This document shows, in pieces, positions 8,060 to 61,972 of a stretch of 64,000 bases of DNA. The position numbers and the translations under genes are program-made. The stretch is taken from the NCBI GenBank assembly GCA_028280285.1, contig JANQMA010000026.1, positions 822 through 64,821 of the forward strand. The letters run 5' to 3'. The stretch is from Candidatus Omnitrophota bacterium. GTDB taxonomy: Bacteria; Omnitrophota; Gorgyraeia; Zapsychrales; Zapsychraceae. The notes under the pieces are model-generated. The model saw only the letters and a program-made list of their open reading frames with translations. It was not told where the DNA came from and ran no database searches. How positions within the stretch are numbered: the first letter of the stretch is position 1; every line of letters starts with the position of its first letter.

Positions 8060-8094
8060 CAAGGCCACACACTATCCCCCAAACCGTTTCAATC

Positions 8095-8122
8095 TTGAAT
8101 TGGCTTAACAGCATGCTATACT
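8095..8122 (+). promoter_or_regulatory. Putative sigma70-type promoter of giant paralog B (TTGAAT-N16-TATACT)
   Basis: TTGAAT at 8095-8100, 16-nt spacer, TATACT at 8117-8122, about 70 nt upstream of ATG 8193. The identical hexamer pair and spacing recur upstream of paralog C. Confidence 0.4.
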
Positions 8123-8192
8123 TATAACTATAATATTAGAAATTAAGGCATTTAGGTGCTGTTTGTATACTTTTACCAGGGAAGGGGTAAAT

Positions 8193-13742: not shown

Positions 13743-13748
13743 ATTTAT

Positions 13749-13818
13749 TAGATCCTAGATCCTTGATTCTTGATGCTAGATATCCAGAATCTAGAATCCA
13801 GGATCAAGCATCTAGAAT
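13749..13818 (+). terminator. Heptad-periodic hairpin after paralog B
   Basis: Left arm is tagatcc tagatcc ttgattc ttgatgc tagatat. Right arm is ccagaat ctagaat ccaggat caagcat ctagaat. It starts 7 nt after the stop codon. Confidence 0.5.
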
Positions 13819-13911
13819 GTGAATTTTTTGTAACACGTCTTCGCATTTCCCAAAATCGTATAAGTCATTTATCATCAGTAGTTTAGATTTATTCTATCCT
13901 GCGCCCTCCTA

Positions 13912-13939
13912 TTGAATTCCCTCTAATTTACGTTATACT
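13912..13939 (+). promoter_or_regulatory. Putative sigma70-type promoter of giant paralog C (TTGAAT-N16-TATACT)
   Basis: TTGAAT at 13912-13917, 16-nt spacer, TATACT at 13934-13939, about 61 nt upstream of TTG 14001. Same hexamers and spacing as at 8095-8122. Confidence 0.4.
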
Positions 13940-14000
13940 TTTACTACAGTATTTCTGTGACACAGTATTGTTCAATTCTACCAAATAGAAGGAGTTACCA

Positions 14001-17000
14001 TTGAAGTCGCTTAAATCTTTCATCCTATCTAAAGTCATTTCATCGCTTACTATATTAATATTTTTATTAGGTAATATTATTATTCCAACCAATACATACG
14101 CAGAGCAAATTGCCACGCCTGTCTTTATGCCGCCTGTAGGTAGTATGATAGGCGCAAGTGAAATGTATACGCCAACGATTATCAACGGATTAATCATCAA
14201 TCCCGATGATCCACTGCAATTTTCATTCCTTGTCGATGCCGGTGATGCGAATCTTCAAGGCGAGGCGTTTAAAGAAGAGTCGCAACGCTTAGTGAATTAT
14301 TTTATGGCGGGGTTAGCTGTTCCGGAAGATGAGATATGGGTTAACTTGTCGCCCTATGAGAAAAATCGTATTGTTCCTGATGCCTTAGGGCAAACAGCGA
14401 TGGGGCGTGACTTGCTTGCCCAAGATTATTTGCTTAAACAATTTACAGCTTCTCTGATGTATCCGGAAGATGAAATGGGTAAAGCCTTCTGGAAGCGAAT
14501 TAAAGAGAAGGTAAGCACCAAACATGGCATTGATGATATCCCGACTAATATGTTTAGTAAAGTTTGGATCGTCCCAGAAAGTGCAAAGATTTATATTCAC
14601 AATATGACAGTATTTTTAACGGATAGTCATTTAAAGGTTATGCTTGAAAAAGACTATTTAGCGACGCGTGAGGCGGTAGGTGATGATGTATCGCATATGG
14701 AAACAGAGCAGGAGCTTTTATCTTCAGAAAATGTTGCCTCTATCATACGAGACATCATTATTCCTGAAATTGAGCATGAGGTAAATCATGGCAAAAACTT
14801 TGCACCTCTTCGCCAAATCTTTAACTCGGTTATTCTTGCTTCCTGGTACAAGGCGAACTTAAAAGAGTCTTTGCTCGGACAAATCTATATTGACCAAAAC
14901 AAAATCGAAGGCATTAATGACAATGCGCCGGCAACGAATCAAGCGATTTACGACCAGTATCTAGAGGCCTTTAAAGCAGGCGTTTATAATTATGTGAAAG
15001 AAGAGTATGACCCTGCAGCCCAGCAAATGGTGGCGCAAAAATATTTTTCCGGCGGGATCGCAAACGATTTTGCAGCAATGGTTGATAATTCCAAATTACA
15101 AACAGTTGGAAAAATAATGGACGGGTTGGATCCGGCCAACATATCTGATTTGCAGAATAGCAATAGTGGGAGTATTCAAAGAGTAGATGTTGAAGTAAAG
15201 CCTGAAGAAATAAATCTTACTACAGTGGATGCTGCCATTTTAGAAGAAATTTCTTACATAAAAGCACTACTGGAACTTTCCTTTGAAGAAGAAGGTAATA
15301 ATGGTGATGAGGAATTTATTGAGGAAATCATGAGCAGTACATCGAGAATAATTGATTACTTCAAAGGTGCTGAAGAAAAGGATTTTAAATCTGACTATGA
15401 AGAAACTGTCCAACACTTAGTTTGGTGGCTTGGGTTCAAATTGCGTGAGGCTAGCTCTCCTGAGGATGGGTTAAATAAGACAATTCAAGTTAATTTCTTA
15501 CATAAAGGCAATGAATATGAGTACGTAGAAAAAAATGATATTAATAGGTCGATGGTAAGGGTTAAAAGTGACAGTTGGAAGAAGGAAGTTAGTCCAATAA
15601 ATACTCCAAGTCTTGCTGAGAACATCAGTTTACTTGAAGTCATGTTGGCTAGCAGTAGGCGAAACCTTGATACACATGTAAGGCGTCCAGTCAAAAACGA
15701 TGTCATTGAGCGTGTCAGGAAATGGCCTTTATTTGTTTTTGAGAATAACGCCGAAAGAAGATGGGTTCTTGATGCGCTTACAAGGAGACGTAATAAAGAT
15801 ATTAATTTAGGTAGCCTCCAGCTTGACGGCTTTGATGCTATTTTAGACAGAATTATTTCACGCCAACTAAAGGGTCAAAAGCGTAATGTAACCGTTGACG
15901 AAAAGCAAATACTTTTAAATCCTATTAATAACAGAAAAACTCTTTACGGAGGGGCGGATATAAGCAGCATACCTATTTTGGTATTACTTAGTATTGTTGA
16001 AGAGATTTACGAGCTGAAGATGTCTAATGAGGTTATTGAGACTACCAGGAAAAAGATGGAGTCAGTTAAGGATAATACTTGGAATATAGTTCGAAAATTT
16101 ATTGATGAGCAAATGAGCGAATATGAGGATCATGAATTGGTTTGGTCGATATATACGAAACCTGATTCTGATTTTAATACAGAAACAGTGTTGGTTATTG
16201 TTCCAAAGAAAGAAAATATAGATCGAGAAAAATTTAATCGGCAGATTGGTATTTTAAGTGAAGCGATTATTGAAAATGTAAATCTTCCCGAGGGGATAAA
16301 TATATTTAAACAAGGGGATAAAAACGCTTCAGATAAAGATTTATTAATCTTCAGAGAAAAAGAAGATGTTAAATTTACTGATGCTGAATCAGGAGAAATA
16401 TTGGAGTTTTATGAAGGAGTAAAGTTGCGTATTAAGCATGCTCCCGAATTTTTCCAACTTGACGGGAAAGGTAATCAATCAGTATTATCACAAAATGACC
16501 GCGAAAAACGGGCTGTGCGCAATATTACACGTGATTTTTATTTGGATTTACGTGTGGCAGATGAAACAAAAGACGATTTAAAACGGATCGATGTCCATTA
16601 TTATTATGGGCTTTCCTCTGGTCGTCGAGGGGTTGTGCCTATTTATGTAAAACAAGATGAGGATATTAACAATATTGCTGATGCGTTGTTGTTTGGTGTG
16701 CAGAGCCAGGTTAATGAAACTAATTTTTATAGACTTATATTTAATGATGTGCGCAGTACTTTAGTTAGACTTTTTGATGGAGAAAATCAAAAAAGACTTA
16801 ACCAGTTTGATAAAATTATTGCCGAAGCGGTAAAAAAAGGAAAATTTGCAAGCGAAGCAAAAGAAAAAATCTTTAAATGGGGCAGAGAAAATCAGCAGTA
16901 TACAGATAAAGAAGGATTAGAAGAGTTTCTACGTGCGCAATACGCGACTTTTAATATTGATTCAGAAATTATACTTAAGCATCTTCTTGACTCAGACTAC

Positions 17001-17330
17001 TTTTCCCAAATAAAAGATATAGTCCGCGGGTTTGACTTGAGCGCAGATAATGCTCATCTGACACCCGGTGGTATTGACCTTAATACCAAGATGCTTGATC
17101 TTAAGCTTGAGTATGATGGCAGCAATATACTGCCTACCGTGGATCCTGCGGTCTTAAAAGACATCAACATTAAAGGGCTTACCCCAATTATTACGAATGT
17201 GGTGCCGATCAGCAATTTGCCGCTTATGCTCGGGTTTGGTGATGGGCCGGGTTCGGATGACTCCGGGCCCTATACGATGGGGTCTGTTGGCGATCTTTCC
17301 TATCTTAAGTCGCAGGAGTTATATAAGTAA
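14001..17330 (+). CDS. Giant exported-family protein, paralog C (1109 aa)
   Basis: TTG start lies 6 nt after GAAGGAG. Signal peptide ends ...PTNTYA|EQ. The N-module is about 3/4 identical to paralog A by hand count over ~150 aa. C-module is GGIDLNTKMLDLKLEYDGSNILP...GLTPIITNVVPISNLPLMLGF. The core is unique. Confidence 0.85.
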   Translation: MKSLKSFILSKVISSLTILIFLLGNIIIPTNTYAEQIATPVFMPPVGSMIGASEMYTPTIINGLIINPDDPLQFSFLVDAGDANLQGEAFKEESQRLVNYFMAGLAVPEDEIWVNLSPYEKNRIVPDALGQTAMGRDLLAQDYLLKQFTASLMYPEDEMGKAFWKRIKEKVSTKHGIDDIPTNMFSKVWIVPESAKIYIHNMTVFLTDSHLKVMLEKDYLATREAVGDDVSHMETEQELLSSENVASIIRDIIIPEIEHEVNHGKNFAPLRQIFNSVILASWYKANLKESLLGQIYIDQNKIEGINDNAPATNQAIYDQYLEAFKAGVYNYVKEEYDPAAQQMVAQKYFSGGIANDFAAMVDNSKLQTVGKIMDGLDPANISDLQNSNSGSIQRVDVEVKPEEINLTTVDAAILEEISYIKALLELSFEEEGNNGDEEFIEEIMSSTSRIIDYFKGAEEKDFKSDYEETVQHLVWWLGFKLREASSPEDGLNKTIQVNFLHKGNEYEYVEKNDINRSMVRVKSDSWKKEVSPINTPSLAENISLLEVMLASSRRNLDTHVRRPVKNDVIERVRKWPLFVFENNAERRWVLDALTRRRNKDINLGSLQLDGFDAILDRIISRQLKGQKRNVTVDEKQILLNPINNRKTLYGGADISSIPILVLLSIVEEIYELKMSNEVIETTRKKMESVKDNTWNIVRKFIDEQMSEYEDHELVWSIYTKPDSDFNTETVLVIVPKKENIDREKFNRQIGILSEAIIENVNLPEGINIFKQGDKNASDKDLLIFREKEDVKFTDAESGEILEFYEGVKLRIKHAPEFFQLDGKGNQSVLSQNDREKRAVRNITRDFYLDLRVADETKDDLKRIDVHYYYGLSSGRRGVVPIYVKQDEDINNIADALLFGVQSQVNETNFYRLIFNDVRSTLVRLFDGENQKRLNQFDKIIAEAVKKGKFASEAKEKIFKWGRENQQYTDKEGLEEFLRAQYATFNIDSEIILKHLLDSDYFSQIKDIVRGFDLSADNAHLTPGGIDLNTKMLDLKLEYDGSNILPTVDPAVLKDINIKGLTPIITNVVPISNLPLMLGFGDGPGSDDSGPYTMGSVGDLSYLKSQELYK

Positions 17331-20562: not shown

Positions 20563-20761
20563 AAATTAAAAAATAAAAAAGAAAAAGTAAAAAAGAAAAT
20601 TGAGAATTGAGAAAGAATGAGAATTTAAAAAATAGTATTTGGTAATTGGTAGTTAGTAATTGGTCACAACATGCATTTTTTCCAGTTTAATTTTGATTTT
20701 TAAATTTATTTAATTTTTTAATTTTTACTTTTATTTTTTCATTCTAACTTTTTAATTAGTT
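20563..20761. repeat. About 200-bp extremely AT-rich spacer with purine-strand to pyrimidine-strand switch (compound imperfect inverted repeat)
   Basis: The left half is an almost pure A/G run (gaaaatt gagaatt gagaaag aatgaga). The right half is a T-rich complement (tttttactttt...ttttcattc). The centre carries tatttggtaattggtagttagtaattggt (20636-20664), one arm of the family C element. Confidence 0.5.
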
Positions 20762-21853: not shown

Positions 21854-21920
21854 GTGGTCTGTTGTCTGTGGTCAGTGGTCATAAACTAAAACTGATCACA
21901 GAGCACCGAACACAGAACAC
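21854..21920 (+). terminator. Heptad-periodic hairpin
   Basis: Left arm gtggtct gttgtct gtggtca gtggtca, 10-nt loop, right arm ctgatca cagagca ccgaaca cagaaca. It starts 1 nt after the stop. Confidence 0.55.
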
Positions 21921-29970: not shown

Positions 29971-30364
29971 GGAGCAAAGAGCGGGGCTTATCCGCTATAT
30001 TGAACTTAAAAGCCCCCAAGGCAATAATTCTGTAACCATTGTTTTTGATGGAAAAGAAGATGTTTATTCGCCTGCCGTTGATTCGAAGGTCAGAATTATT
30101 TATACGAAGGGTGAGTCGGCGGATGAGAAGATCAAGAAGATGGTTAAGGCCTCTTCTCAGGTCAAGTCGATTGTTGTGGTGACTGATGACCGGGACATTC
30201 AATATTCGGTGAGAGCCGCCGGAGCTAAAATAAGCAGCGTACATGATTTTTTACATCAAAAACCAGCTCCCAAGTCGGGCCGAAGCCGTAAGGTGTCCAG
30301 AGAGTCTGAGCAAAAAATCAATGAAGAATTGAAAGATATCTGGCTAAAAGATAATAATGAATGA
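29897..30364 (+). CDS. YacP/Rae1-like NYN (PIN-like) domain protein
   Basis: MSLQYLLDGYNLIH... and VVTDDRDIQ motifs. The start is uncertain (29873 or 29897); either one overlaps the upstream gene. Confidence 0.6.
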   Translation: MSLQYLLDGYNLIHKMANLSSKKLEEQRAGLIRYIELKSPQGNNSVTIVFDGKEDVYSPAVDSKVRIIYTKGESADEKIKKMVKASSQVKSIVVVTDDRDIQYSVRAAGAKISSVHDFLHQKPAPKSGRSRKVSRESEQKINEELKDIWLKDNNE

Positions 30365-30431
30365 TAGGAGGTGTTAGGTTGTAGGTGTTGGGTGCTAGTA
30401 TACTAAAACCTAAAACCCAGAACCTAACACC
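30365..30431 (+). terminator. Heptad-periodic hairpin, family A
   Basis: Left arm aggtgtt aggttgt aggtgtt gggtgct, then loop, then right arm taaaacc taaaacc cagaacc taacacc, followed by tttt. It abuts the stop codon. Confidence 0.6.
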
Positions 30432-30454
30432 TTTTATCATTTTCTTTTACTACT

Positions 30455-32294: not shown

Positions 32295-32363
32295 GTACTT
32301 AGGACATAGGACTTGGGACTTAGGGTGCCAACCTCCAGGTCCTAAGTCCCAACGCCTAAGTAC
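32295..32363 (+). terminator. Heptad-periodic hairpin
   Basis: Left arm gtactta ggacata ggacttg ggactta. Right arm ccaggtc ctaagtc ccaacgc ctaagta. Confidence 0.55.
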
Positions 32364-33353: not shown

Positions 33354-33481
33354 GGCCTATTCAGTCCTAAAAAAAGGTTGCAAAACAGTCCCATAGAGGG
33401 TAATATTCGTAGTTTGGCTACGAAAGTTATATAAAAATAGATAGCCAATATGTAGAAAAAAGAGGTAAAGAGGTATTATAT

Positions 33482-33561
33482 AAACATTTTAAAACATTAA
33501 ACTTTAAACACTTAACAGATTTATTTCCAAACAGTTTAATGTTTATTGTTTAAAGTTTGAA
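33482..33561 (+). terminator. Heptad-periodic hairpin, family B (aaacatt / gtttaat)
   Basis: Left arm aaacatt aaacttt aaacact. Right arm gtttaat gtttatt gtttaaa gtttgaa. Confidence 0.45.
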
Positions 33562-34145: not shown

Positions 34146-34218
34146 TAGGGAGTAGGGAATAGGGCATAGGGAACAGTGTTACACTTACTGTTACCTAACC
34201 CCTAATCCCTATTCCCTA
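34146..34218 (+). terminator. Heptad-periodic hairpin
   Basis: Left arm tagggag tagggaa tagggca tagggaa, then loop, then right arm ttaccta accccta atcccta ttcccta. It starts 3 nt after the stop. Confidence 0.6.
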
Positions 34219-41356: not shown

Positions 41357-41857
41357 ATGGAATATTTCAAACATGAACAAGCTATAGTTGATGATAAGGC
41401 TCAAATCGGCCGTGGAACACGTATTTGGGCGTTTTCCAATATTCAAGAAGGTGCTGTTGTCGGAGAGGATTGTAACTTGTGCGACGGATGTTTTATAGAA
41501 GGCGGGGCGGTTGTCGGGAATAATGTAACGGTTAAACATCATGTTTCGATTTTTGATGGGGTGACGATTGAAGATGATGTTTTTATCGGATCTAATATTG
41601 CGTTTATCAATGACAGGTTTCCGCGCAGCAAGGCGCATGATATTGAGTGGGACAAGACATTGATCAAACAAGGGGCGTCGATCGGCACTAATGCTGTTGT
41701 ATTAGGTGGTATTACCGTCGGGCGCTATGCCTTTGTCGGGGCCGGCAGTGTGGTAACGCGTGATGTGCCTGATTATGGGCTTGTTTACGGTAATCCGGCT
41801 CAATTGCATGGGTATGTGACCAAAGACGGAAAGCGCACAGACCAGCCACCTGAGTGA
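41357..41857 (+). CDS. Left-handed beta-helix N-acetyltransferase (WbpD-like), copy 2
   Basis: Hexapeptide repeats. Colinear with 23962..24543 but lacks its Cys-rich tail. Confidence 0.7.
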   Translation: MEYFKHEQAIVDDKAQIGRGTRIWAFSNIQEGAVVGEDCNLCDGCFIEGGAVVGNNVTVKHHVSIFDGVTIEDDVFIGSNIAFINDRFPRSKAHDIEWDKTLIKQGASIGTNAVVLGGITVGRYAFVGAGSVVTRDVPDYGLVYGNPAQLHGYVTKDGKRTDQPPE

Positions 41858-41863
41858 TAAATT

Positions 41864-41977
41864 TTATTCGGTTATAGTTACGGTTGCGAAGCCCGCTTCG
41901 TATGTTCGTTTAACGGTTGTCGTCATAAAACACGTTTAACGTAACCAAAAGCCGATACGGGCATCGATACCGAATAA
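41864..41977. repeat. Long imperfect inverted repeat with TTATTCGG...CCGAATAA ends (family D-related)
   Basis: ttattcgg at 41864-41871 pairs with ccgaataa at 41970-41977. Inner pairing is cggttgcgaagcccg with cgggcatcgataccg. The arm resembles 45191-45221 and 55389-55418. Confidence 0.35.
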
Positions 41978-42015
41978 CGAATGACATAACCGGATTATTG
42001 ATAAACTGAAAAAAT

Positions 42016-45180: not shown

Positions 45181-45190
45181 GGTAAACTTA

Positions 45191-45221
45191 TTATTCGGCT
45201 CGAGTTAGCCGCTTGCATTGG
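45191..45221. repeat. Solo arm copy of the family D element
   Basis: ttattcggctcgagttagccgcttgcattgg matches 55389-55418 (ttattggttcgagttggccgcttgcattgg) at 28 of 31 positions. Confidence 0.6.
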
Positions 45222-45251
45222 AATACTACCTGACAAACTGGTGGAGTTATT

Positions 45252-45986: not shown

Positions 45987-46691
45987 ATGTCCTCAATGAC
46001 GATAGCGATCGGCCTCTGTATTATCACGGTTATTTGTTTAGGTATTATCTTTATGATGCCTGATGAAAAGTCTATGGCGCAGAAAAGAAAACAAGAAAAG
46101 GCCGAAAGACGCCGTGAGAGGAAACAAGAACAGCAGACATCGCACAAAGATTGGGAAAAAACCGCTCGGCGCTATCAATCTCAACTGCACCAAGTCAAAA
46201 ATGAATTAGAGTCCCATGCTCAGCAGATACGTGAGCTTCAAAAACAGCTTTTAGCTGAGCAGGTTAAGACAGAAAAAATTAAAGAAAAATATAATAAAGT
46301 AAAAGAGTGGATTGCCAAAAAAGAAAGTGATGTCGGTAAAAAAGAAAAAGGAATGACGGATATCAAACAGGAGTTAAAAAAGGTTCAAGATCTTTATAGT
46401 GATGAGCATGTTAAAAATATTCATCTGCAAAAGCAACTGGATGAGCTTAAAAAAGAGCATGAATTAACCGTTGAACAAAGACGCCTGGCTGAAAATGAAA
46501 GCGCGACCCTCAAGGCGAAAAACGACATCCACCGTCAAGAAATAGCTCATCTCAAAAAGGACATCGCGATCTTAACCAAAAAAAAGAATGACGAAACCTT
46601 TGTGGCGCGGTCTGAGTTTTTAAAACTCGAAAAAGAATTAAAAGAAAAAAATAAAGAAATAGAACGCCTTAATCGGCAAAAAGAAAGTTAA
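45987..46691 (+). CDS. Membrane-anchored coiled-coil protein
   Basis: N-terminal TM helix followed by a K/E/Q-rich heptad-like sequence. Confidence 0.5.
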   Translation: MSSMTIAIGLCIITVICLGIIFMMPDEKSMAQKRKQEKAERRRERKQEQQTSHKDWEKTARRYQSQLHQVKNELESHAQQIRELQKQLLAEQVKTEKIKEKYNKVKEWIAKKESDVGKKEKGMTDIKQELKKVQDLYSDEHVKNIHLQKQLDELKKEHELTVEQRRLAENESATLKAKNDIHRQEIAHLKKDIAILTKKKNDETFVARSEFLKLEKELKEKNKEIERLNRQKES

Positions 46692-46742
46692 AGGGGTCAG
46701 AGCATTTTTTCATTCATGATGAAAAAATGCTCTGACCCCTTT
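46692..46742 (+). terminator. Canonical intrinsic terminator (perfect 22-bp stem, 5-nt loop, T-run)
   Basis: aggggtcagagcattttttcat (46692-46713) pairs perfectly with atgaaaaaatgctctgacccct (46719-46740), followed by tt. Confidence 0.85.
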
Positions 46743-46749
46743 AGGAGAT

Positions 46750-51084: not shown

Positions 51085-51099
51085 TGAAAAACAATTTTT

Positions 51100-51158
51100 A
51101 AACAATAAACTTTAAACATTAAACAGGCTTGTTTAATGTTTAGTGTTTAAAGTTTAAT
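51100..51158 (+). terminator. Heptad-periodic hairpin, family B
   Basis: Left arm aaacaat aaacttt aaacatt aaacagg. Right arm gtttaat gtttagt gtttaaa gtttaat. Confidence 0.55.
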
Positions 51159-51166
51159 CAAATAGT

Positions 51167-51889
51167 ATGACCAAAATAAGACTACAAGTTTTCCTCTCCC
51201 GCAATGGCGTTTGTTCCCGCCGGGAGGCCATGGGACTTATTAAGGAAGGCCATGTTTCGGTCAATGGTCAAAAACAGGCGGAGCCGTCTTTTGCGGTTGA
51301 TCCGGATAAAGATAAAATTTGTTTTAAGGGAAAAGTAATTGAAACAAAACAATTAGAGTATGCACTTTTTCATAAACCACAAGGATATGTGACAACCAAG
51401 GCCGATCACGGTAGTCAGAAAAATATTTACAAAATTCTGCCGAACAAGTATAAACATTTGCTGCCTGTCGGGCGTTTGGATAAAAATACAGAAGGTTTGC
51501 TGTTATTGACCAATGATGGTGATTTGGCCTTTGCTTTAACGCATCCTAAGTTTCATGTCGATAAGACATATTTTGTTATTGCCAAAGGCGATGTAGAGCT
51601 AAAAACCATCAGCCGTTTGGAAACGGGTGTTGTGATTGAAGGCGGCAAAACGGCACCGGCGAAAATAAAAGAAGTTAGAAGTAAGGGGCGTGATACGCAT
51701 TTGAAAATAACCATTCATGAAGGCAAGAAGCGTCAAATACGACTTATGTTTGAGGCCGTGGGGCATAAGGTGAAATATTTAAAACGGTTAACCCAGGGGC
51801 CTATTGGATTGGGTTCATTGCCGGTTGGTAAGACGCGTGAACTTGATCGAAAAGAGATCAAGGCATTAAAGGCCATAAGCCATAGGTAA
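51167..51889 (+). CDS. rluB: Pseudouridine synthase, RsuA/RluB family
   Basis: N-terminal S4 domain (RLQVFLSRNGVCSRREA) and catalytic GRLDKNTEGLLLLTNDG. Confidence 0.75.
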   Translation: MTKIRLQVFLSRNGVCSRREAMGLIKEGHVSVNGQKQAEPSFAVDPDKDKICFKGKVIETKQLEYALFHKPQGYVTTKADHGSQKNIYKILPNKYKHLLPVGRLDKNTEGLLLLTNDGDLAFALTHPKFHVDKTYFVIAKGDVELKTISRLETGVVIEGGKTAPAKIKEVRSKGRDTHLKITIHEGKKRQIRLMFEAVGHKVKYLKRLTQGPIGLGSLPVGKTRELDRKEIKALKAISHR

Positions 51890-51949
51890 TAGGTTTTAGG
51901 TGTTAGGTGCTAGGAGACTAAAACCTAAAACCCATAACCTAACACCCCG
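51884..51949 (+). terminator. Heptad-periodic hairpin, family A
   Basis: Left arm taggtaa taggttt taggtgt taggtgc tagg. Right arm ctaaaac ctaaaac ccataac ctaacac. The first heptamer contains the rluB stop codon. Confidence 0.6.
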
Positions 51950-51967
51950 ATCTACAAATTACAGCAT

Positions 51968-53911
51968 ATGATTAGTTTAAATAATATTTCGATGGGATTC
52001 ACCGGGCGTACGCTTTTTCAAGATGTGACGCTTAGCATTTTTCCGAAAGAGCGGATTGGCCTAACCGGTCCCAATGGAGCGGGGAAGACGACATTATTTT
52101 CGATTATTCTCGGGGAGATGGAATCAACGACCGGTAATGTGCAGATTCAAAAGAATATTAACATCGGTTATCTGCCGCAGGAGGCCAAATTTAGCTCCGA
52201 GCAGACGGTGATGGAAGAAATTACTTCGGGTGATGCGCGTATCAAAAATCTCTTAACCGAAAAACATAAACTCGAAGATCAAGGGGAGGCGGCAAGTGAT
52301 CGTTATGGTGATATTTTATCCAAGCTTGAGCAACTCGGGATTTATGAGCTCGAACATAAGGCAGAGAAAATTCTGGCCGGATTAGGGTTTAAAGAGAGTG
52401 AATTTCACAAACCTGTTGTCGAACTTAGCGGCGGCTGGCAGATGCGCACGCTTCTCGCCAAACTCTTAACGTATTCTTATGATCTGCTTCTTCTCGATGA
52501 GCCGACCAACTATCTTGACTTGCATGCCACACTTTGGCTTAAGGATTATTTAAAAAGTTATCAAGGCGCCTATGTCTTGATATCCCATGACCGCGTCTTT
52601 CTTAATGATGTCACCAATTACACAATCATTTTAGAGCAGAACAAGATGACCAAGGTCAAAGGAAATTACGAGCAGTATGAAGAGCAAAAGGCAACGGAAC
52701 AAAAGTCGCTTGAGAAAAGGAAAAAGGTGGTTGATAAAAAACGTCAACAGCTTGAGCGGTTTACCCAGCGATTTCATGCCCAGCCGAACCGTGCTTCAGC
52801 TGTTAAGAATAAACAGAAGATGATCGAAAAGCTTGAGAATATCGAACTTGATCGGGAAGTGGTGAGTGTCGGTGATTTTTCTTTTGAAGATGTGCCAACG
52901 AGCGGTTATGTGGTGGCGACCGGGCAGAACTTACATAAGGCTTATGGTGAAAAGGTGGTGTATCAAGGTTTGGATCTTGAAATCACACGCGGGCAGAAGA
53001 TTTGTTTGGTTGGACCGAATGGCGCCGGGAAATCGACACTGCTTAAGATGCTTGCCGGGATTATCAATCCCGATCAAGGCAGTGTGAAATTAGGCCATGA
53101 TGTTAAACGTGGTTATTTTTCACAAACGCGACTGGATGTGCTTCAACCGAATCGCAATGTACTCGAAGAATTAACTTCGGCCACAACCAAGAGTATTCCG
53201 GCGACAAAACTCCGTACACTGCTTGGGCTTTTCAGTTTTCATGGGGATGATGTATTTAAGCTGGTTAAAGTCTTATCAGGCGGTGAGAAGTCGCGGTTGA
53301 TTTTAGCTAAGCTTCTCATTAATCCGCCTAACTTTATGCTTTTGGATGAGCCGACAACACATCTGGACCTTGATGGGGTTAAGGCGCTGACCGGCGCGTT
53401 CCAAAAGTTTGAAGAGACCATGTGTTTTATCAGTCATGATCTTTATTTTATTAAGGAAGTGGCTGACCATATTATTGAAGTTAATGAGGGTAAGATCAAA
53501 ATCTATCACGGCGGTTTAGATTATTACTTGTATAAAAAAGAAGGTAAGGATTTTAAGGATTTGAAAAAGAGTAAGTCGTCGGCGTCAGCCTCAGCGGTTG
53601 TTGCGGCAGATAAGAAAAACAAAAAAAAGGCCAAGGCTAATCCAAAAGTCGATAATCTGTATCAAAAGCATAAAGAGGCCAAGAAAAGACTATCACAGAT
53701 TAAAAAAGAAATTTCTAGTTTAGAAAAGGAAGCAAAGGAGCTTGATACCGAAAGTTATGTGAAGGCCAGGCAGATGAGCGATACGTACGGGAAAGATCCG
53801 AAGATAATCAAAGAGCTTGGTGTACGGCTTAAGGAAATCCAAACGCGTCTGCGGGAGATTGAAAGCCGGATTAAAGAATTGGAACAGGAAAAACGTGGGA
53901 TCAGCAGATAG
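51968..53911 (+). CDS. ABC-F family ATPase (two ABC domains, no TM domain; Uup/EttA-like)
   Basis: Two Walker A motifs (GPNGAGKTT, GPNGAGKST) and two signatures (LSGGWQMR, LSGGEKSR). Basic coiled-coil tail. Confidence 0.85.
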   Translation: MISLNNISMGFTGRTLFQDVTLSIFPKERIGLTGPNGAGKTTLFSIILGEMESTTGNVQIQKNINIGYLPQEAKFSSEQTVMEEITSGDARIKNLLTEKHKLEDQGEAASDRYGDILSKLEQLGIYELEHKAEKILAGLGFKESEFHKPVVELSGGWQMRTLLAKLLTYSYDLLLLDEPTNYLDLHATLWLKDYLKSYQGAYVLISHDRVFLNDVTNYTIILEQNKMTKVKGNYEQYEEQKATEQKSLEKRKKVVDKKRQQLERFTQRFHAQPNRASAVKNKQKMIEKLENIELDREVVSVGDFSFEDVPTSGYVVATGQNLHKAYGEKVVYQGLDLEITRGQKICLVGPNGAGKSTLLKMLAGIINPDQGSVKLGHDVKRGYFSQTRLDVLQPNRNVLEELTSATTKSIPATKLRTLLGLFSFHGDDVFKLVKVLSGGEKSRLILAKLLINPPNFMLLDEPTTHLDLDGVKALTGAFQKFEETMCFISHDLYFIKEVADHIIEVNEGKIKIYHGGLDYYLYKKEGKDFKDLKKSKSSASASAVVAADKKNKKKAKANPKVDNLYQKHKEAKKRLSQIKKEISSLEKEAKELDTESYVKARQMSDTYGKDPKIIKELGVRLKEIQTRLREIESRIKELEQEKRGISR

Positions 53912-53998
53912 TATTCTTCGCTCAGACAAACGCTGCGCTACCTTTTTCTATGGAAAAAGGTATGCACCGTAACTCGCTCGGGAATACTATCTGCTAAT
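53912..53998 (+). terminator. Imperfect hairpin after the ABC-F gene
   Basis: Outer stem agtattc...gaatact. Inner stem taccttttt-ctatgg-aaaaaggta. No clear T-run. Confidence 0.35.
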
Positions 53999-53999
53999 C

Positions 54000-54305
54000 A
54001 TGTCGTTAAAATTTTTCTACGAGCGACTAGCAACGATCAACCAGCAACTAAATATGAAACTAAAACTCGACCTCCATGACATCTATTCCAACGGCCGCAA
54101 GCTTGAGCAGGCGCTCATCGATGTTATGCAGGATGCGCAGGATAAAAGAGCGAAGGTGGTTGAAATTATTCCCGGCAAAGGATCCGGGCAGCTCAAAAAA
54201 TATGTGCTGAGATTCCTTGAGAAGAATTACAAAAACGTTTATCATAGGATAGAAAAAGATGATAAAAACTGGGGGCGTATCTTTGTTCACTTTCGCTGGA
54301 AATAA
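54000..54305 (+). CDS. Smr-domain protein
   Basis: KLDLHD...VEIIPGKGSGQLK pattern of Smr/MutS2-C domains. ATG 54054 is an alternative start. Confidence 0.6.
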   Translation: MSLKFFYERLATINQQLNMKLKLDLHDIYSNGRKLEQALIDVMQDAQDKRAKVVEIIPGKGSGQLKKYVLRFLEKNYKNVYHRIEKDDKNWGRIFVHFRWK

Positions 54306-54693
54306 AAATAGTACCTGGCACTATTTATTGATGATCGCGGTTATTTTTGTCTCGGGCTGCTCGGTCACACAAAACCTCGAAGAGATCAAGACCTTACAAT
54401 CTGTGGCCAAAAGCCAAGAGCAAATAGAACAGGATATTGCCGCGGATGATAAGGTCTTTGCCACGATGATGGCCGAATATCAGTACAATCAACTGGCTGA
54501 ATACAAAACCCGGGATGATATTGTCAAAGCCTTTGGTGAGCCGGAAGGCCGCTGGGATATTAAGGAAGACAATCTTACCACCAAATGGCTTTACCGCGAG
54601 GCCGCCGACTTTTTCAAATCCGCCAAGCTCTATCTTTACTTCGATCATAACGAAAATCTCATCAAAATCGAATTCGTCCCTGTGCCACAATAA
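54259..54693 (+). CDS. Lipoprotein, unknown function
   Basis: Lipobox FVSGC. The start is uncertain (54259 or 54331). Confidence 0.45.
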   Translation: MIKTGGVSLFTFAGNKNSTWHYLLMIAVIFVSGCSVTQNLEEIKTLQSVAKSQEQIEQDIAADDKVFATMMAEYQYNQLAEYKTRDDIVKAFGEPEGRWDIKEDNLTTKWLYREAADFFKSAKLYLYFDHNENLIKIEFVPVPQ

Positions 54694-54705
54694 TTTCTTT
54701 CACTA

Positions 54706-55347
54706 ATGAGTAAATCGTATCAAAAAATCTACGACATCTTGTACGATCACTACGGTCCGCAGCATTGGTGGCCCGGGGATACACAGATCGAAATCATCGT
54801 TGGGGCGATTCTAACGCAAAATACGAATTGGAAGAATGTCGAGAAGGCCATCATTAATTTGAAGGATAACGGCGTTCTCACGGTGCCGGCGCTTAAGAGC
54901 ATTGCTGTCGACTCTTTGGCCGAATTTATCCGGCCGGCCGGGTATTTTAATGTGAAGGCCAAGCGTCTTAAGAATTTTATTCACTTTGTCTACGCGGAAT
55001 ATGATGGTGACCTAAAGATGATGGGCAAAGAGACGTTTGACGTTTTACGCCCTAAACTCCTCGCCGTCAACGGCATTGGGCAGGAGACGGCTGATTCGAT
55101 TTTACTCTATGCCTTTGACAAACCAATCTTTGTCGTCGATACCTACACCAAACGCATTTTGACCCGGCATCATTTGGTTCCGGAGGATATTGACTATCAT
55201 GGCCTTCAGGAGGAGTTTATGGCGGCTTTAGAGCCTGATGCGAAGCTGTTTAATGAGTATCATGCGCTTATTGTGCGCGTGGCTAAAGATTTCTACCAAA
55301 GAAAATCCAATGGGGCGGACTCTCCGCTGAATGTATTATTTGATTAA
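54706..55347 (+). CDS. Endonuclease III-related HhH-GPD domain protein
   Basis: HWWPGDTQIEIIVGAILTQNTNWKNVEKA and LLAVNGIGQETADSILLYA (HhH) motifs. Confidence 0.7.
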   Translation: MSKSYQKIYDILYDHYGPQHWWPGDTQIEIIVGAILTQNTNWKNVEKAIINLKDNGVLTVPALKSIAVDSLAEFIRPAGYFNVKAKRLKNFIHFVYAEYDGDLKMMGKETFDVLRPKLLAVNGIGQETADSILLYAFDKPIFVVDTYTKRILTRHHLVPEDIDYHGLQEEFMAALEPDAKLFNEYHALIVRVAKDFYQRKSNGADSPLNVLFD

Positions 55348-55388
55348 TCTCGTATTTTTGTGTAATATGGTCACGTAATTAGGGAGTC

Positions 55389-55504
55389 TTATTGGTTCGA
55401 GTTGGCCGCTTGCATTGGATTGTTGAGTGACTGAAATCGTCTTCTAAAAGGTAAACGATTTCCGGAACGAAACAACCAATGCAGAAGCCCAACGAGAACA
55501 ATAA
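55389..55504. repeat. Rod-like long hairpin I (family D), nested stems
   Basis: Outer arm ttattggttcgagttggccgcttgcattgg... pairs with ...ccaatgcagaagcccaacgagaacaataa. Inner perfect stem is gaaatcgt (55433-55440) with acgatttc (55455-55462). Confidence 0.6.
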
Positions 55505-55512
55505 TTAAGGCT

Positions 55513-55630
55513 CTCGGGGTTCTGTATTGTATTGCTCCACTTTTGGGATTTCGTTCACTTGGCAAATCGAGCAAAGCGAGATTAATAAACGAAATCAATC
55601 GTTACGCAATACAATACAACCGGCCTCGAG
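55513..55630. repeat. Rod-like long hairpin II, nested stems
   Basis: Outer arm ctcggggttctgtattgtattgc pairs with gcaatacaatacaaccggcctcgag (13 bp perfect). Inner perfect stem is gatttcgtt (55547-55555) with aacgaaatc (55588-55596). Confidence 0.6.
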
Positions 55631-55649
55631 CCGGAAGTTTATTCACAAC

Positions 55650-56912
55650 ATGACAACAATACTTCTAATAATTTCCATTCTTAATTTAGCTCTTATTGCT
55701 GTTCTTATCTTTAAACGCTCGGCCCAAAACGGGGGCGAGTTGCGCTCATCCCTTGATGCGCTGGATAAAAATCAACAACGGCTTGAAGGTATTATTAGAG
55801 AAGAACAGCAGAAGAATCTTAATACATTCTCTGAATCGCTTTTCTCACGCTTGAATGATGTCAACAATGCCAGTAAGAACCAACTGGATTCTTTCTCCAA
55901 ACAGCTGGCCCAGCTGACCCAACTTAATCAGGAAAAATTGGAACAACTCCGTTCGGCTATCGATAATCAACTCAAAGGGTTAAGGGATGATAATAGCCAA
56001 AAGCTTGAGAAAATGCGCGAAACGGTCGATGAAAAACTTCAGTCAACGCTTGAGAAACGTTTAGGCGAGTCTTTTCAAATCGTCAGCGAACGGCTTGAGA
56101 AAGTCCATCAAGGTTTAGGCGAAATGCAAAATCTAGCCTCCGGCGTTGGGGATCTGAAGAAAGTACTAACCAATGTTAAAACACGCGGCACATGGGGTGA
56201 GATTCAACTTGGTAATTTATTGGAAGAACTCCTCACACAGGATCAGTACGAGCATAATGTAATCACCAAAAAAGGTGGTCGTGATTCGGTCGAGTTTGCG
56301 GTTAAGCTGCCGGGGCGTGATGAAAAATATGTGTACTTGCCGATCGATGCGAAATTTCCTAAAGAAGATTATGAACGCCTGCAGTCAGCGCAAGACGCCG
56401 GTGATGTGGCCCAAATAGAAGAGGCAGGCAAGGCCATTGAAACACGCATAAAGCTTGAAGCCAAAAAGATCCGCGACAAATACATCGATCCGCCGCACAC
56501 AACCGACTTTGGGATTTTGTATTTGCCGATTGAAGGATTGTTTGCCGAAGTGGTGCGTCGTGACGGACTTGCTGATCTTCTGCAAAGGGAATACCGTATT
56601 AATATTGCCGGCCCGACGACCATTGCGGCGATGCTTAATAGTCTGCAGCTTGGCTTCAGGACATTGGCGGTGGAAAAACGGGCGAGTGAAGTTTGGACGC
56701 TGTTGGGTAAAGTTAAAACAGAGTTTGGTAAATTTGGCGGACTGCTTGAAAACACGCATAAAAAGCTAGAAACAGCCAGCCGTGAGATTGAAAAAGCGGC
56801 GAGCAAATCACGGACCATTGAACGCAAACTACGTGATGTCCAGGAACTTCCGGCCTCCAAACCGGCTGAGCTGATTGAGTCGAGTATGGGAGATTTTGAT
56901 GAGGAGGATTGA
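55650..56912 (+). CDS. rmuC: DNA recombination protein RmuC
   Basis: ATG 55650 gives an N-terminal TM helix (MTTILLIISILNLALIAVLIF), a long coiled coil and a C-terminal RmuC nuclease-like region. The track's 55527 start lies inside hairpin II. Confidence 0.75.
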   Translation: MTTILLIISILNLALIAVLIFKRSAQNGGELRSSLDALDKNQQRLEGIIREEQQKNLNTFSESLFSRLNDVNNASKNQLDSFSKQLAQLTQLNQEKLEQLRSAIDNQLKGLRDDNSQKLEKMRETVDEKLQSTLEKRLGESFQIVSERLEKVHQGLGEMQNLASGVGDLKKVLTNVKTRGTWGEIQLGNLLEELLTQDQYEHNVITKKGGRDSVEFAVKLPGRDEKYVYLPIDAKFPKEDYERLQSAQDAGDVAQIEEAGKAIETRIKLEAKKIRDKYIDPPHTTDFGILYLPIEGLFAEVVRRDGLADLLQREYRINIAGPTTIAAMLNSLQLGFRTLAVEKRASEVWTLLGKVKTEFGKFGGLLENTHKKLETASREIEKAASKSRTIERKLRDVQELPASKPAELIESSMGDFDEED

Positions 56913-57582
56913 TTGTTTCGGCGATGATGTGCTTGCGGCCATTACAGATGTGTCGACGGATTTTAAACTTACACCCGAGGACAATGATTTAAACGACACG
57001 CAGCGCACCTTTCTTAAAAATAATTTAAATCTAGATGATGTGGTTAATATCCGTCAGGTGCATGGCAACAGAGTTGTCTACGCACAAAGTAGTGATCAAC
57101 CGATCGAAGAGGCGGATGCCCTTATCACCGACAAAACAAATATTCCTATTACAATCCGCACCGCTGATTGTGTGCCGGTATTTATGTATGATCCGGCCCA
57201 TCATGTTATCGGTATTGTTCATGCCGGCTGGCAGAGCACGCATAAAAAAATTGTACAAACGACACTTGATATGTTAAAAGAGAAATTCGAAACTGATCCA
57301 AAAGATGTTAAGGTTTACATTGGTCCCTGCATTCGTAAAACAAGTTTTGAAGTAGGGCCTGAGTTTAAAGAGTATTTTCCGGATGAATATGAAGCTATTG
57401 ACGGTCAGGGGTTTGTTGATGTTGCCGAGGCGAATAAAAATCAGCTGCGTAGCCTAGGTGTTGTGGATAAAAATATTGAAGATTGTGGGGAAGATACGTA
57501 TACTGATAGCAATTGGTTTTCATTCCGCCGAGATGGTGAAGCCGCCGGGCGGATGCTGCATGTGATGATGCTTAAGGGTTGA
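56899..57582 (+). CDS. pgeF: YfiH/PgeF-family (DUF152, laccase-domain) protein
   Basis: RQVHGNRVV, TADCVPV and HAGWQ motifs. GGGAG lies 6 nt before ATG 56899. Confidence 0.75.
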   Translation: MRRIDCFGDDVLAAITDVSTDFKLTPEDNDLNDTQRTFLKNNLNLDDVVNIRQVHGNRVVYAQSSDQPIEEADALITDKTNIPITIRTADCVPVFMYDPAHHVIGIVHAGWQSTHKKIVQTTLDMLKEKFETDPKDVKVYIGPCIRKTSFEVGPEFKEYFPDEYEAIDGQGFVDVAEANKNQLRSLGVVDKNIEDCGEDTYTDSNWFSFRRDGEAAGRMLHVMMLKG

Positions 57583-57607
57583 GGGTAATTGAGTAATATG
57601 GAAAAAT

Positions 57608-57688
57608 GTAATTAGTAGTTAGTAATTGGTAATTGGTGGCCAATGTAGAATTTAGCTGACTAATTACTAAATACCAATTACCAAATAC
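57608..57688 (+). terminator. Heptad-periodic hairpin, family C (gtaattg / ccaatta)
   Basis: Left arm gtaatta gtagtta gtaattg gtaattg. Right arm ctaatta ctaaata ccaatta ccaaata. Confidence 0.55.
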
Positions 57689-57724
57689 ATTTGTACAGAT
57701 TAATATCTAAAACAAGGAGCAGGT

Positions 57725-60685: not shown

Positions 60686-60698
60686 AATAAAATTGATT

Positions 60699-60775
60699 AA
60701 ACTTTAAACAATAAACATTAAACTGTTTGGCAAGATGTGAGTATATTGTTTAATGTTTAAAGTTTATTGTTTAAA
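60699..60775 (+). terminator. Heptad-periodic hairpin, family B
   Basis: Left arm aaacttt aaacaat aaacatt aaactgt, then loop, then right arm gtttaat gtttaaa gtttatt gtttaaa. Confidence 0.55.
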
Positions 60776-60808: not shown

Positions 60809-60910
60809 ATGCCTTGCGGTAAAAAAAGAAAAGCCAGAAAAATTAGAACACATAAGCGTAAAAAACTACGCAAATCTATGCGTCACTTAAAGAAACGTAA
60901 ATCGCGTTAA
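60809..60910 (+). CDS. 33-aa highly basic protein, bS22-like (AURKAIP1/COX24-type) small ribosomal protein candidate; absent from the ORF track
   Basis: Hand translation gives MPCGKKRKARKIRTHKRKKLRKSMRHLKKRKSR*. This matches my recollection of the MPxGKKRK..K..THKRKK.LRK.RH pattern of bS22-type proteins. Confidence 0.55.
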   Translation: MPCGKKRKARKIRTHKRKKLRKSMRHLKKRKSR

Positions 60911-60959: not shown

Positions 60960-61964
60960 ATGTTGGATAAAAGCAGACAAAAGTTAGTGGGCATTCTCAT
61001 TGCAATGATGCTCGTCGTTGCTTATCCAAAACAGGTGTGTGCCTTTGCATTCCAAGATCGCGTAGCTACCGCCAAGAGCCTTGCGCATTACATGACAGGC
61101 CAGATTTATGATCTTCTTGGGGATCCTAAACGCGCTGCCATGGCGTATAAGGCGGCGTCTCAGTTTGATCCTTCCAGCTATTTAATTCGTCTTCGTCTTG
61201 GCGTTGATTATGCCCGGCTTAATATGTTGGGAGCCGCCGTTGAAGAGCTTAATATGGTCGGTGAGCTCAATAAAGACGAACTGCAGTCACACTATCTGCT
61301 TGCCCTTATTTATTCTTCGACACGACAGTTTGATAAAGCCGCGGAAGAATACGAGTATATTCTAACCACATTTTCTGAGTCAGACCCGAAGAATATCGAG
61401 ATCCATGGGTATCTTGGTCAGCTTTATTATTCTCAAAAAAAATATGATCAGGCCTTAAAACAGTTTGAACAGATTTATGCCTTGGAACCGGAGAATGCCG
61501 ATATTATGTATCTTCTAGGCTCTCTGTATATTGAAACCGGAAGAAGTGAAGAGGCATTTGAGATCTTAAATAAATCTATTAAAATTAACCCTAATCACGA
61601 CGGTAGTTTAAATACTTTGGCCTACATGTATGCCGAAGAGAACCGCAATTTAGATGAGGCGCTTGAGTATGTCAAACTGGCGATTAGTTTGTCCCCTGAC
61701 AACGGGGCCTATATCGATACCTTAGGATGGGTTTATTTTAAGAAAAAAGAATACAAAAAGGCTTTAGAGGCTTTGGAAGATGCCAATGCATTACTTAAGG
61801 ATCCTATCATACTTGATCATCTCGGTGATGTTTATATGAAGTTGAACAAACCTGATAAAGCGATCGAAAATTGGGAAGCTTCGTTAAAACTTAAGCCCGC
61901 TCAAGAAGAAGTTACGCGCAAGTTAAACGAGGCCCGCAACAACAGTGCCCACCGTACCGAATAA
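60960..61964 (+). CDS. TPR-repeat protein with signal/anchor sequence
   Basis: ATG 60960 follows AGGAG. Hydrophobic N-terminus followed by about 7 TPR units (A..Y......P.N...L..LG.VY). Confidence 0.65.
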   Translation: MLDKSRQKLVGILIAMMLVVAYPKQVCAFAFQDRVATAKSLAHYMTGQIYDLLGDPKRAAMAYKAASQFDPSSYLIRLRLGVDYARLNMLGAAVEELNMVGELNKDELQSHYLLALIYSSTRQFDKAAEEYEYILTTFSESDPKNIEIHGYLGQLYYSQKKYDQALKQFEQIYALEPENADIMYLLGSLYIETGRSEEAFEILNKSIKINPNHDGSLNTLAYMYAEENRNLDEALEYVKLAISLSPDNGAYIDTLGWVYFKKKEYKKALEALEDANALLKDPIILDHLGDVYMKLNKPDKAIENWEASLKLKPAQEEVTRKLNEARNNSAHRTE

Positions 61965-61972
61965 CGACAAAC

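Follow-up and report, generated by a model that had tools for sequence, protein, structure and literature searches.

What fills the gap upstream of rmuC in this genome? In the 64,000-nt stretch of contig JANQMA010000026.1 (Candidatus Omnitrophota) that we analyzed, which we call the window, the HhH-GPD (endonuclease III-like) gene ends with a stop codon at 55345-55347, and a 302-nt spacer runs from there to rmuC. A sequence-only reading of the window had noticed two adjacent long inverted repeats in this spacer and had offered three explanations: a pair of structured noncoding RNAs, a repeat of the MITE or REP kind, or a regulatory 5' leader of rmuC. The inverted repeats are present, and everything that was said about the sequences of their arms and stems holds. 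The questions are whether these structures belong to the DNA or to an RNA, whether other genomes have them at this site, and how they arose.

The palindromes upstream of rmuC

Element I lies at 55389-55504 on the plus strand (116 nt). Its outer arms (55395-55418 and 55476-55499) are 24 nt each and are 75% complementary without gaps, and they extend inward (55420-55440 and 55455-55475) to include the perfect stem GAAATCGT/ACGATTTC. Element II also has the arms and the stem that were described, with 13 perfect base pairs between 55523-55535 and 55606-55618 and a perfect inner stem of 9 bp (GATTTCGTT/AACGAAATC), but the original bounds of 55513-55630 can be improved. Given its fold and its alignment to element I, element II is better placed at 55505-55636 on the minus strand (132 nt). 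Within the TCGAG-type arm of element II is a short GC-rich palindrome, CCGGCCTCGAGCCGG (55620-55634, not assigned to a strand), which resembles the core of a REP. The same palindrome, with a 5-bp stem and the tail AAGTTTATTC, is the only terminator-like site that was called here; it is weak and is called on both strands. There is no run of T 3' of either of the large hairpins.

The sequence-only reading had raised the concern that the folds might be no better than those of shuffled controls. Instead, z is about -6.8 for both elements, and none of the 200 shuffles did as well. Folded as RNA, element I has a minimum free energy of -45.0 kcal/mol (shuffle mean -22.6, z = -6.85) and element II has -44.7 kcal/mol (shuffle mean -22.3, z = -6.81). 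Their minus strands, also folded as RNA, have z = -5.4 (I) and z = -6.2 (II). Overall, the z of the hairpin is about -6 to -7 for element I (about -6.2 to -6.9 for its plus strand) and from -4.4 to -6.8 for element II. As single-stranded DNA, the two strands of each element are equally stable (-26 and -26 kcal/mol for I, -21 and -21.5 kcal/mol for II), and nearly all of the pairs in the stems are Watson-Crick. Because the stems are Watson-Crick, the folding is far beyond that of shuffled sequences, and the DNA folds are equal on the two strands, we conclude that I and II are palindromes at the level of DNA and are not due to chance. We also considered a strand-specific bias in G-U pairs as a sign of RNA, and we rejected it, as no consistent asymmetry was found among I, II, and the other hairpins in the window.

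Judging from their alignment, I and II are homologous but diverged copies of one element, in opposite orientations. We refer to this element as family D. The global alignment of element I (plus strand) to the reverse complement of 55505-55644 has a score of 45, compared to 11.6 +/- 4.8 for the null (z = 7.0, with 0 of 500 shuffles scoring as high), while the alignment of I and II in the same orientation does no better than background (z = 0.8). I and II meet tail-to-tail at 55504/55505, and this junction is itself palindromic (CGAGAACAATAATTA / TAATTAAGGCTCTCG, 80% complementary). One type of arm, TT..GG[CT]TCGAG..GCCG[CG]TTG[CT]ATTG, is on the left in I and on the right in II. A second type, TTA..G.TCTCG..GG[GC]TTCTG[CT]ATTG, is on the right in I. 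If we include a solo arm that is described below, then there are five arms, with pairwise identities of 65-91%, or 74-91% if one short alignment of 17 positions is excluded. The arms differ in whether they have a core palindrome: it is clear in the solo arm (CGGCT-CGAGTT-AGCCG, 5 bp), and one arm of II has it too (CCGGC..GCCGG), but the left arm of I has just a weak version, and the TCTCG-type arms have none. When we built a hidden Markov model from I and the solo arm, its best match outside of the training sequences was the right arm of II, but this match was weak (E = 0.33). So it is the full-length global alignment that carries the homology of I and II.

The consensus structure of I and II (minus strand) has 28 predicted pairs, of which 7 are changed on both sides. 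In its outer rod, 4 of the 20 pairs are changed on both sides and none is broken. By this comparison, the ability to form a hairpin has been maintained while I and II diverged by about 35%.

To see whether other genomes have these elements upstream of rmuC, we compared the window to three syntenic relatives: L082/L083 (from ENA), whose RmuC is 92-94% identical to that of the window and whose other proteins are 61-91% identical; L084 (from Logan), whose RmuC is 74-76% identical; and L085 (from Logan), which is collinear with the window from 36 to 55.6 kb, with proteins that are 49-86% identical. (In GTDB genomes, the closest RmuC proteins are from Candidatus Omnitrophota MAGs and are 55-70% identical. 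The identical protein is recorded just for one NCBI contig and for a Logan assembly of SRR20820735.) The gene order Smr, hypothetical, HhH-GPD, RmuC is kept in all three relatives, and the spacer between HhH-GPD and rmuC is exactly 54 nt in L082, L084, and L085, versus 302 nt in the window. The excess of 248 nt corresponds to 55389-55636, which is I (116 nt) plus II (132 nt). Because the spacer is 54 nt in three relatives and the excess is equal to I plus II, the comparison indicates that the block is a lineage-specific insertion that is absent from the orthologous site in these relatives. Among 44 other rmuC loci (mostly from Omnitrophota), most of those whose alignment extends to residue 1 have a short upstream spacer, so a long structured leader is not a feature of rmuC.

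The sequence-only reading had also suggested looking for target-site duplications beside the copies, and we found none that are convincing. The 248-nt block is preceded by AGTC and followed by GTTT, which do not form a direct repeat, and the sequences on either side of I alone are mutually complementary instead of directly repeated. Element II (on the minus strand) and the solo arm do have the 5' flank TAAAC in common, which may be a target preference or may be part of the element.

The block is next to rmuC itself, whose true start is, from homology, the ATG at 55650. Homologs of RmuC align from residue 1 of the protein that begins there (55650-56912, plus strand; 420 aa, intact; E = 1.7e-75 to Pfam RmuC). 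An independent gene caller, given an identical contig from Logan, also began rmuC at this ATG and did not call any gene within the spacer. It had been suspected that the ORF at 55389-55598 (minus strand) and the TTG start at 55527 were artifacts, and we agree: neither has a match in Pfam, and both the homologs and the gene caller begin at 55650.

Upstream of the insertion, and overlapping the HhH-GPD stop codon, is the promoter-like motif TTGATT-N17-TAATAT (55340-55368, plus strand). Besides the end of the HhH-GPD gene, the window, L082, L084, and L085 share TTGATT, a 17-nt spacer that ends with TTTGTG, and TA[ATG]TAT. Although the motif matches the consensus at just 8 of 12 positions, which is under the threshold of a simple promoter scan, its conservation makes it a plausible sigma-70 promoter. 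Further downstream is a Shine-Dalgarno-like sequence, AGGGAGTC (55381-55388, plus strand), which is 262 nt from the ATG of rmuC and whose AGGGAG is found in the window only. L082 has the similar sequence TAATAGGAAATTC immediately before the ATG of rmuC, and 55381-55388 is probably the ancestral ribosome-binding region. On the other side of the block, the last 13 nt before the ATG (GTTTATTCACAAC, 55637-55649, plus strand) resemble the GTTTGCATTTCT that precedes rmuC in L085. These 13 nt are likely a remnant of the ancestral 5' UTR, as the lengths also suggest: 41 + 13 = 54 nt, which is the length of the spacer in all three relatives. The site of the block is thus between the conserved promoter-like motif with the SD-like AGGGAG and the start codon of rmuC.

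Given the conserved promoter-like motif, I and II are probably co-transcribed with rmuC as an accidental long 5' UTR. The predicted fold of the whole leader has a free energy of -106 kcal/mol (z = -6.9), and in this fold the base of hairpin I includes GGCUCUC, which is paired to the SD-like region. Near the gene there is only a weak GGAAG, 12 nt 5' of the start. Because the old SD-like sequence is now 262 nt away and is paired in the predicted fold, and just the weak GGAAG is nearby, the insertion likely has accidental effects on rmuC.

We also noticed some other features around rmuC and elsewhere in the window. In the closest relative (L082, 1852-1854, and L083, 85-87), rmuC contains an in-frame TGA where the window has CTT, which encodes leucine. 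Two independent assemblies from ENA agree on the TGA, and the product of the gene caller is therefore only 329 aa. This could be a pseudogene, a shared error, or perhaps recoding. At 60809-60910 of the window is an extremely basic ORF of 33 aa (MPCGKKRKARKIRTHKRKKLRKSMRHLKKRKSR), which is below the ORF-length cutoffs that we used. It is conserved at 69-83% of DNA positions in about 17 other rmuC loci from GTDB (mostly from Omnitrophota), about 5.4 kb downstream of rmuC, and we presume that it may be a bS22-like ribosomal protein. Finally, 17-17330 of the window contains three very large ORFs of 2,680, 1,859, and 1,109 aa, and the 1,109-aa ORF has no match in Pfam.

A solo arm and the search for more copies

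The sequence-only reading reported that the left arm of I recurs by itself at 45191-45221, and this copy is real. The solo arm (45186-45242, plus strand) is of the TCGAG type and lies between the gene for an M48 peptidase and a 104-aa ORF. Its ungapped alignment to the left arm of I has 22 identities in 23 positions (blastn within the window, E = 2e-5), and an alignment with one gap has 29 identities in 32 columns. The spacer between these genes is 71 nt in the window, versus 10 nt in L085 and 11 nt in L086, so the solo arm is also in inserted sequence, at an unrelated junction that is 10 kb away. It has no partner, and we read it as a truncated copy, or singlet. All five of the arms are intergenic. 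Across the roughly 70 kb of the source genome that is visible to us (the window and contig L090), there are two loci of family D with five arms.

We searched for further arms with blastn, with nhmmer, and with an HMM of the arms, and found none in the window, in 5.6 kb of additional sequence from the same genome (L090), in the relatives, or in 1.17 Mb of sequence from other Omnitrophota, including 80 Omnitrophota rmuC loci. The exact 22-mer TCGAGTTRGCCGCTTGCATTGG has no occurrences in GTDB representative genomes, JGI metagenomes, or IMG/VR; because the source genome is absent from these collections, this says little about the copy number. A pattern for the arms of element II, TGTATTGTATTGC-N55-85-GCAATACAATACA, has three matches in JGI metagenomes (L087-L089), but we rejected these as unrelated, as they are low-complexity palindromes of (TGTAT)n with interiors that are unlike element II. 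Collections of phages and plasmids, searched in distant mode, gave no match to family D. We also compared the window to the covariance models of Rfam 15, as the sequence-only reading had suggested. No family matched the locus: at the gathering score, the only hit in the whole window was a tRNA-Gln, and 55200-55800 had no hit even at E <= 10.

Logan provides more information about the copy number. Contig L001 (from SRR20820735) is identical to 51097-57691 of the window and runs through both I and II. Within a Logan assembly, each 31-mer is distinct (PMC12424806). From this uniqueness we infer that there is probably no other copy that shares 31 nt or more exactly with I or II, so family D is either old or low in copy number.

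About 36 genes of the window were scanned against Pfam, and there was no transposase and no RAYT among them. Those that were scanned are all housekeeping genes (sugar-nucleotide, glycosyltransferase, thioredoxin, PanD, Def, LipA-like, Mla, GreA, HisG, SpoVG, and others). Nor did we see, within the window, an insertion sequence whose ends match those of family D.

An inverted repeat at 41864-41977 was also thought to be related to I and II. The repeat exists, as a nested 135-nt hairpin (41864-41998) between the genes for a hexapeptide transferase and a GT2 protein, and it is inserted as well: this junction is 159 nt in the window versus 0 nt in L085. The proposed kinship is not supported. The 8-mer TTATTCGG occurs 7 times in the window versus 3.3 expected, and 6 of 100 shuffles reach 7; the local alignment of this hairpin to the solo arm has p = 0.013, uncorrected; and the HMM of family D arms does not detect it. 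Given the weak alignment and the unremarkable count of the motif, we do not count it as a member of family D. On both sides of the hairpin are the 7 nt TGATAAA (41856-41862 and 41999-42005), a direct repeat that could be a target-site duplication, and a 13-mer from its right end recurs at 61955-61967.

Hairpins at other gene junctions

Family D appears to be part of a wider invasion of the gene junctions in the source genome. We compared junctions across a 15-kb stretch that is collinear with L085 and at sites that are covered by L082 and L086. At least 8 junctions in the window have hairpin insertions where the relatives have 0-54 nt: 41858-42015, 45181-45251, 46689-46743, 51085-51166, 51890-51967, 53912-53999, 55389-55636, and 57583-57724. 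These relatives, at about 55-90% amino acid identity, have no hairpins at the same junctions. Furthermore, an all-versus-all comparison of 3 kb of spacers from the window gave 19 matches of at least 30 bits, versus 0 in five shuffles. For example, 57 nt at 30365 and at 51890 are 91% identical, and 32 nt at 33440, 51085, and 60686 are 100% identical. In all, there are at least four palindromic families that are dispersed in the window, and family D is the longest and the least repetitive of them. The palindromes at junctions are of several kinds: those whose arms have a period of seven, perfect palindromes that begin at the stop codon of the preceding gene, and family D, which is complex.

In the first kind, the arms are made of tandem heptamers (for example, TTTAAAC/AATAAAC, TAGGTGT/TAGGTTG, TAGATCC, TGGTAAT, GGGAATA, GAGCATC, and TGGTTGT), and many of the heptamer units contain TAA, TAG, or TGA. 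These hairpins are at 13751-13815, 20630-20665, 21854-21920, 30360-30441, 32304-32361, 33499-33558, 34153-34218, 51098-51157, 51890-51945, 57605-57700, and 60697-60775 in the window and at 2690-2755 and 4966-5040 in contig L090 from the same genome. Several of them form dispersed families, such as the repeats of 57 nt and 32 nt above. The order of the heptamers and the loops vary among the copies, and at the sites that are covered by L082 or L085, all of the heptamer hairpins are absent from those genomes. We take them to resemble the STRR heptamer repeats of cyanobacteria. The Logan contigs L001 and L090 start or end inside heptamer hairpins (at 51097, 57691, and 60749 of the window). Because the Logan assembly, which is built from short reads with k = 31, breaks within these hairpins, such repeats fragment the assemblies of this organism.

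Other hairpins adjoin coding sequence. Between the genes for an ABC-F protein and an Smr protein is a nested 101-nt hairpin (53899-53999). The final 13 nt of the ABC-F coding sequence (ATC AGC AGA TAG; I-S-K/R-stop is conserved in the relatives) make up its left arm. Its right arm adjoins the ATG of Smr and is an inverted copy of the ABC-F end; it keeps ATT, like L082, where the coding sequence now has ATC. From these sequences, the hairpin looks like an inverted duplication of its flank or the extension of a palindrome by template switching. A perfect 25-bp palindrome (46689-46743) begins exactly at the TAA stop codon of the upstream gene. The aminotransferase gene downstream of it has one intact frame from 46756, which is 53% identical to L085 over 380 aa, and this frame has no ATG, GTG, or TTG before 47104; a nearby ATG (46748) is in another frame. 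The gene may have an unusual start codon, or there may be a frameshift or an error in the sequencing beside the palindrome.

With so many unrelated palindromic families at junctions, we considered whether a new process might lie behind them: either an undescribed mechanism that inserts or extends hairpins, or a system of intercistronic insulators that is selected for by the host. We think that this is unlikely.

The origin of family D

How, then, did I and II come to be upstream of rmuC? In our view, family D is probably a dispersed and palindromic mobile repeat, similar to a REPIN, that is non-autonomous and depends on the formation of hairpins by a single strand. We are less certain that a RAYT-type enzyme, specifically, is involved. 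Among the three readings that were offered at the outset, the mobile repeat is supported by the insertion, by the inverted homologs, and by the second locus, while the conserved pair of noncoding RNAs and the regulatory leader of rmuC are not supported.

Each copy, of about 116-132 nt, has two inverted arms of about 35-50 nt around a short spacer, and so resembles a REP doublet that forms a hairpin. The pair was inserted after this lineage split from its known relatives, either by two insertions or by one insertion and then a local inverted duplication, and at a site with the promoter and old ribosome-binding region of rmuC on one side and the start codon on the other. The hairpin would be a property of the DNA element, and is probably needed for its mobilization as single-stranded DNA. 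The mobilizing enzyme would be encoded elsewhere and, because there is no target-site duplication, is most likely of the IS200/IS605-RAYT kind. The gene would have been left with a leader of about 275 nt that has two stable hairpins and a weak replacement for the ribosome-binding site.

Some of our results do count against a mobile repeat. Just two loci are visible in about 70 kb, and neither a transposase nor a RAYT is among the genes that were scanned. The conserved 22-mer had no match in the collections that we scanned (which lack the source genome), and the passage of L001 through I and II suggests a family that is old or has few copies. Also, apart from the solo arm and one arm of II, the arms have no clear core palindrome of the REP type. 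And the tail-to-tail pair could stem from a local inverted duplication instead of a second transposition.

REPINs are doublets of REP sequences that form hairpins and are mobilized by RAYT tyrosine transposases (Bertels and Rainey 2011, PMC3116915). As in REPINs, a family D element has two inverted repeat units around a spacer that form a hairpin of about 100 nt; family D is strictly extragenic, with singlets as remnants; and its clusters could form by insertion beside an existing element, with no target-site duplication (PMC3116915). On the other hand, family D has no sequence similarity to any described REP, its arms are longer (about 35-50 nt) and come in two distinct types, not all of the arms have a clear core palindrome, the family is probably low in copy number or old, and no RAYT gene is among the window genes that we scanned. 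REP-RAYT systems have units of 20-60 bp, each with an imperfect palindrome at its core; they have tens to hundreds of copies in a genome, and their single-copy RAYT gene (a Y1 transposase) usually has the repeats on its flanks. To our knowledge, no REPIN system has been described in the Omnitrophota.

Two other groups of bacterial repeats are worth comparing. In Neisseria, the Correia elements (CREE/NEMIS) are palindromes of about 100-150 bp that lie between promoters and start codons, and transcripts of the downstream gene include them as long hairpin leaders. Their terminal inverted repeats are 26 bp long, they duplicate a TA target, and they have hundreds of copies that are nearly identical. 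Family D is likewise a palindromic repeat between a promoter-like motif and a start codon, and it is probably co-transcribed as well, but we saw no 26-bp terminal inverted repeats, no TA duplication, and no near-identical copies, and it has no sequence similarity to the Correia elements. The ERIC/IRU and RUP/BOX-type repeats of enterobacteria and streptococci, which have dozens to hundreds of conserved copies per genome, are imperfect palindromes as well; they measure about 107-127 bp and are found in core operons, in intergenic regions that are transcribed. Family D also consists of imperfect palindromes that are present or absent at orthologous sites in related species, but the sequences are unrelated and the phylum is different.

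The main rival to a mobile repeat is that the palindromes grew in place, by template switching or by fold-back copying, with II as a local inverted duplication of I and without any transposition. This would fit the absence of target-site duplications and also the arrangement of I and II, which are adjacent and inverted with a palindromic junction (CGAGAACAATAATTA / TAATTAAGGCTCTCG). Two of the other hairpins could have formed this way: the right arm of 53899-53999 is an inverted copy of the end of the ABC-F coding sequence, and the palindrome at 46689-46743 starts exactly at the upstream stop codon. But growth in place cannot account for the solo arm, which matches the left arm of I at 22 of 23 nt from an unrelated spacer at a distance of 10 kb. 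Also, the window has other hairpin families whose copies are clearly dispersed, and most of the inserted sequence has no local template in the window. So we consider it quite unlikely that family D arose in this way.

A dedicated function as RNA is disfavored because the block is absent from the relatives, because it has both orientations of the element, and because its helices are symmetric with respect to strand. We considered a lineage-specific 5' leader of rmuC, an attenuator, a processing site, or a pair of small RNAs. Transcription with rmuC is probable, given that the promoter-like motif upstream is conserved in four genomes, and the predicted leader is very stable, as described above (-106 kcal/mol, z = -6.9). 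Due to G-U pairs, the extended stem of I gains 15 kcal/mol on the plus strand relative to the minus strand, but the core helices are equally stable on both strands. There is a small GC hairpin and then a T-rich tail before the ATG of rmuC, yet this terminator-like site is weak and is called on both strands. The pairing in I and II has been kept despite the divergence of about 35%. Nevertheless, the block is missing from every relative that we examined, rmuC leaders elsewhere in the phylum are mostly short, nothing in Rfam matches at E <= 10, and a single putative transcript would contain the element both ways around, with a further half copy ahead of an unrelated gene. A functional RNA therefore seems very unlikely to us.

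Is family D instead a classical MITE, that is, a deletion derivative of an insertion sequence with a DDE transposase, which moves by cut-and-paste via its terminal inverted repeats? We find this very improbable. The absence of a direct repeat around the I+II block or around I alone speaks against it, as do the flanks of I, which are complementary to each other, and the lack of an insertion sequence with matching ends in the window. This is despite a suitable size (116-132 nt), terminal inverted repeats (TTATT.. / ..AATAA, with the arms TTATTGG.. / ..CAATAA), and intergenic locations at more than one locus. The doublet, the singlet, the cluster, the extragenic locations, and the absence of direct repeats all fit a REPIN better than a MITE of the DDE type, which would be expected to leave direct repeats. 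An integron attC site, a retron msr-msd, an IS605 omega-RNA, and a LexA box were dropped, as the partner gene or the defining motifs are lacking.

Overall, family D appears to be a new repeat family, of the selfish or neutral kind found in bacteria, from an under-studied phylum, and not a conserved regulatory RNA. For annotation, this means that rmuC should start at the ATG at 55650 and that the ORFs inside the hairpins are spurious. The striking structure upstream of rmuC would be a lineage-specific insertion of a repeat, and there is no need to pursue it as a riboswitch. If our favored explanation is correct, then REPIN-like repeats are documented in the genome of an uncultured member of the Omnitrophota, and the locus is a clean example of how a gene may stay intact even though such an element has separated it from its original ribosome-binding site. 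The junction hairpins that are absent from relatives are possibly more interesting than family D itself, and they account for the break points in short-read assemblies of the source genome. If there does prove to be a new hairpin mechanism or an insulator system, then family D would be its most complex product, and these would not be ordinary families of MITEs.
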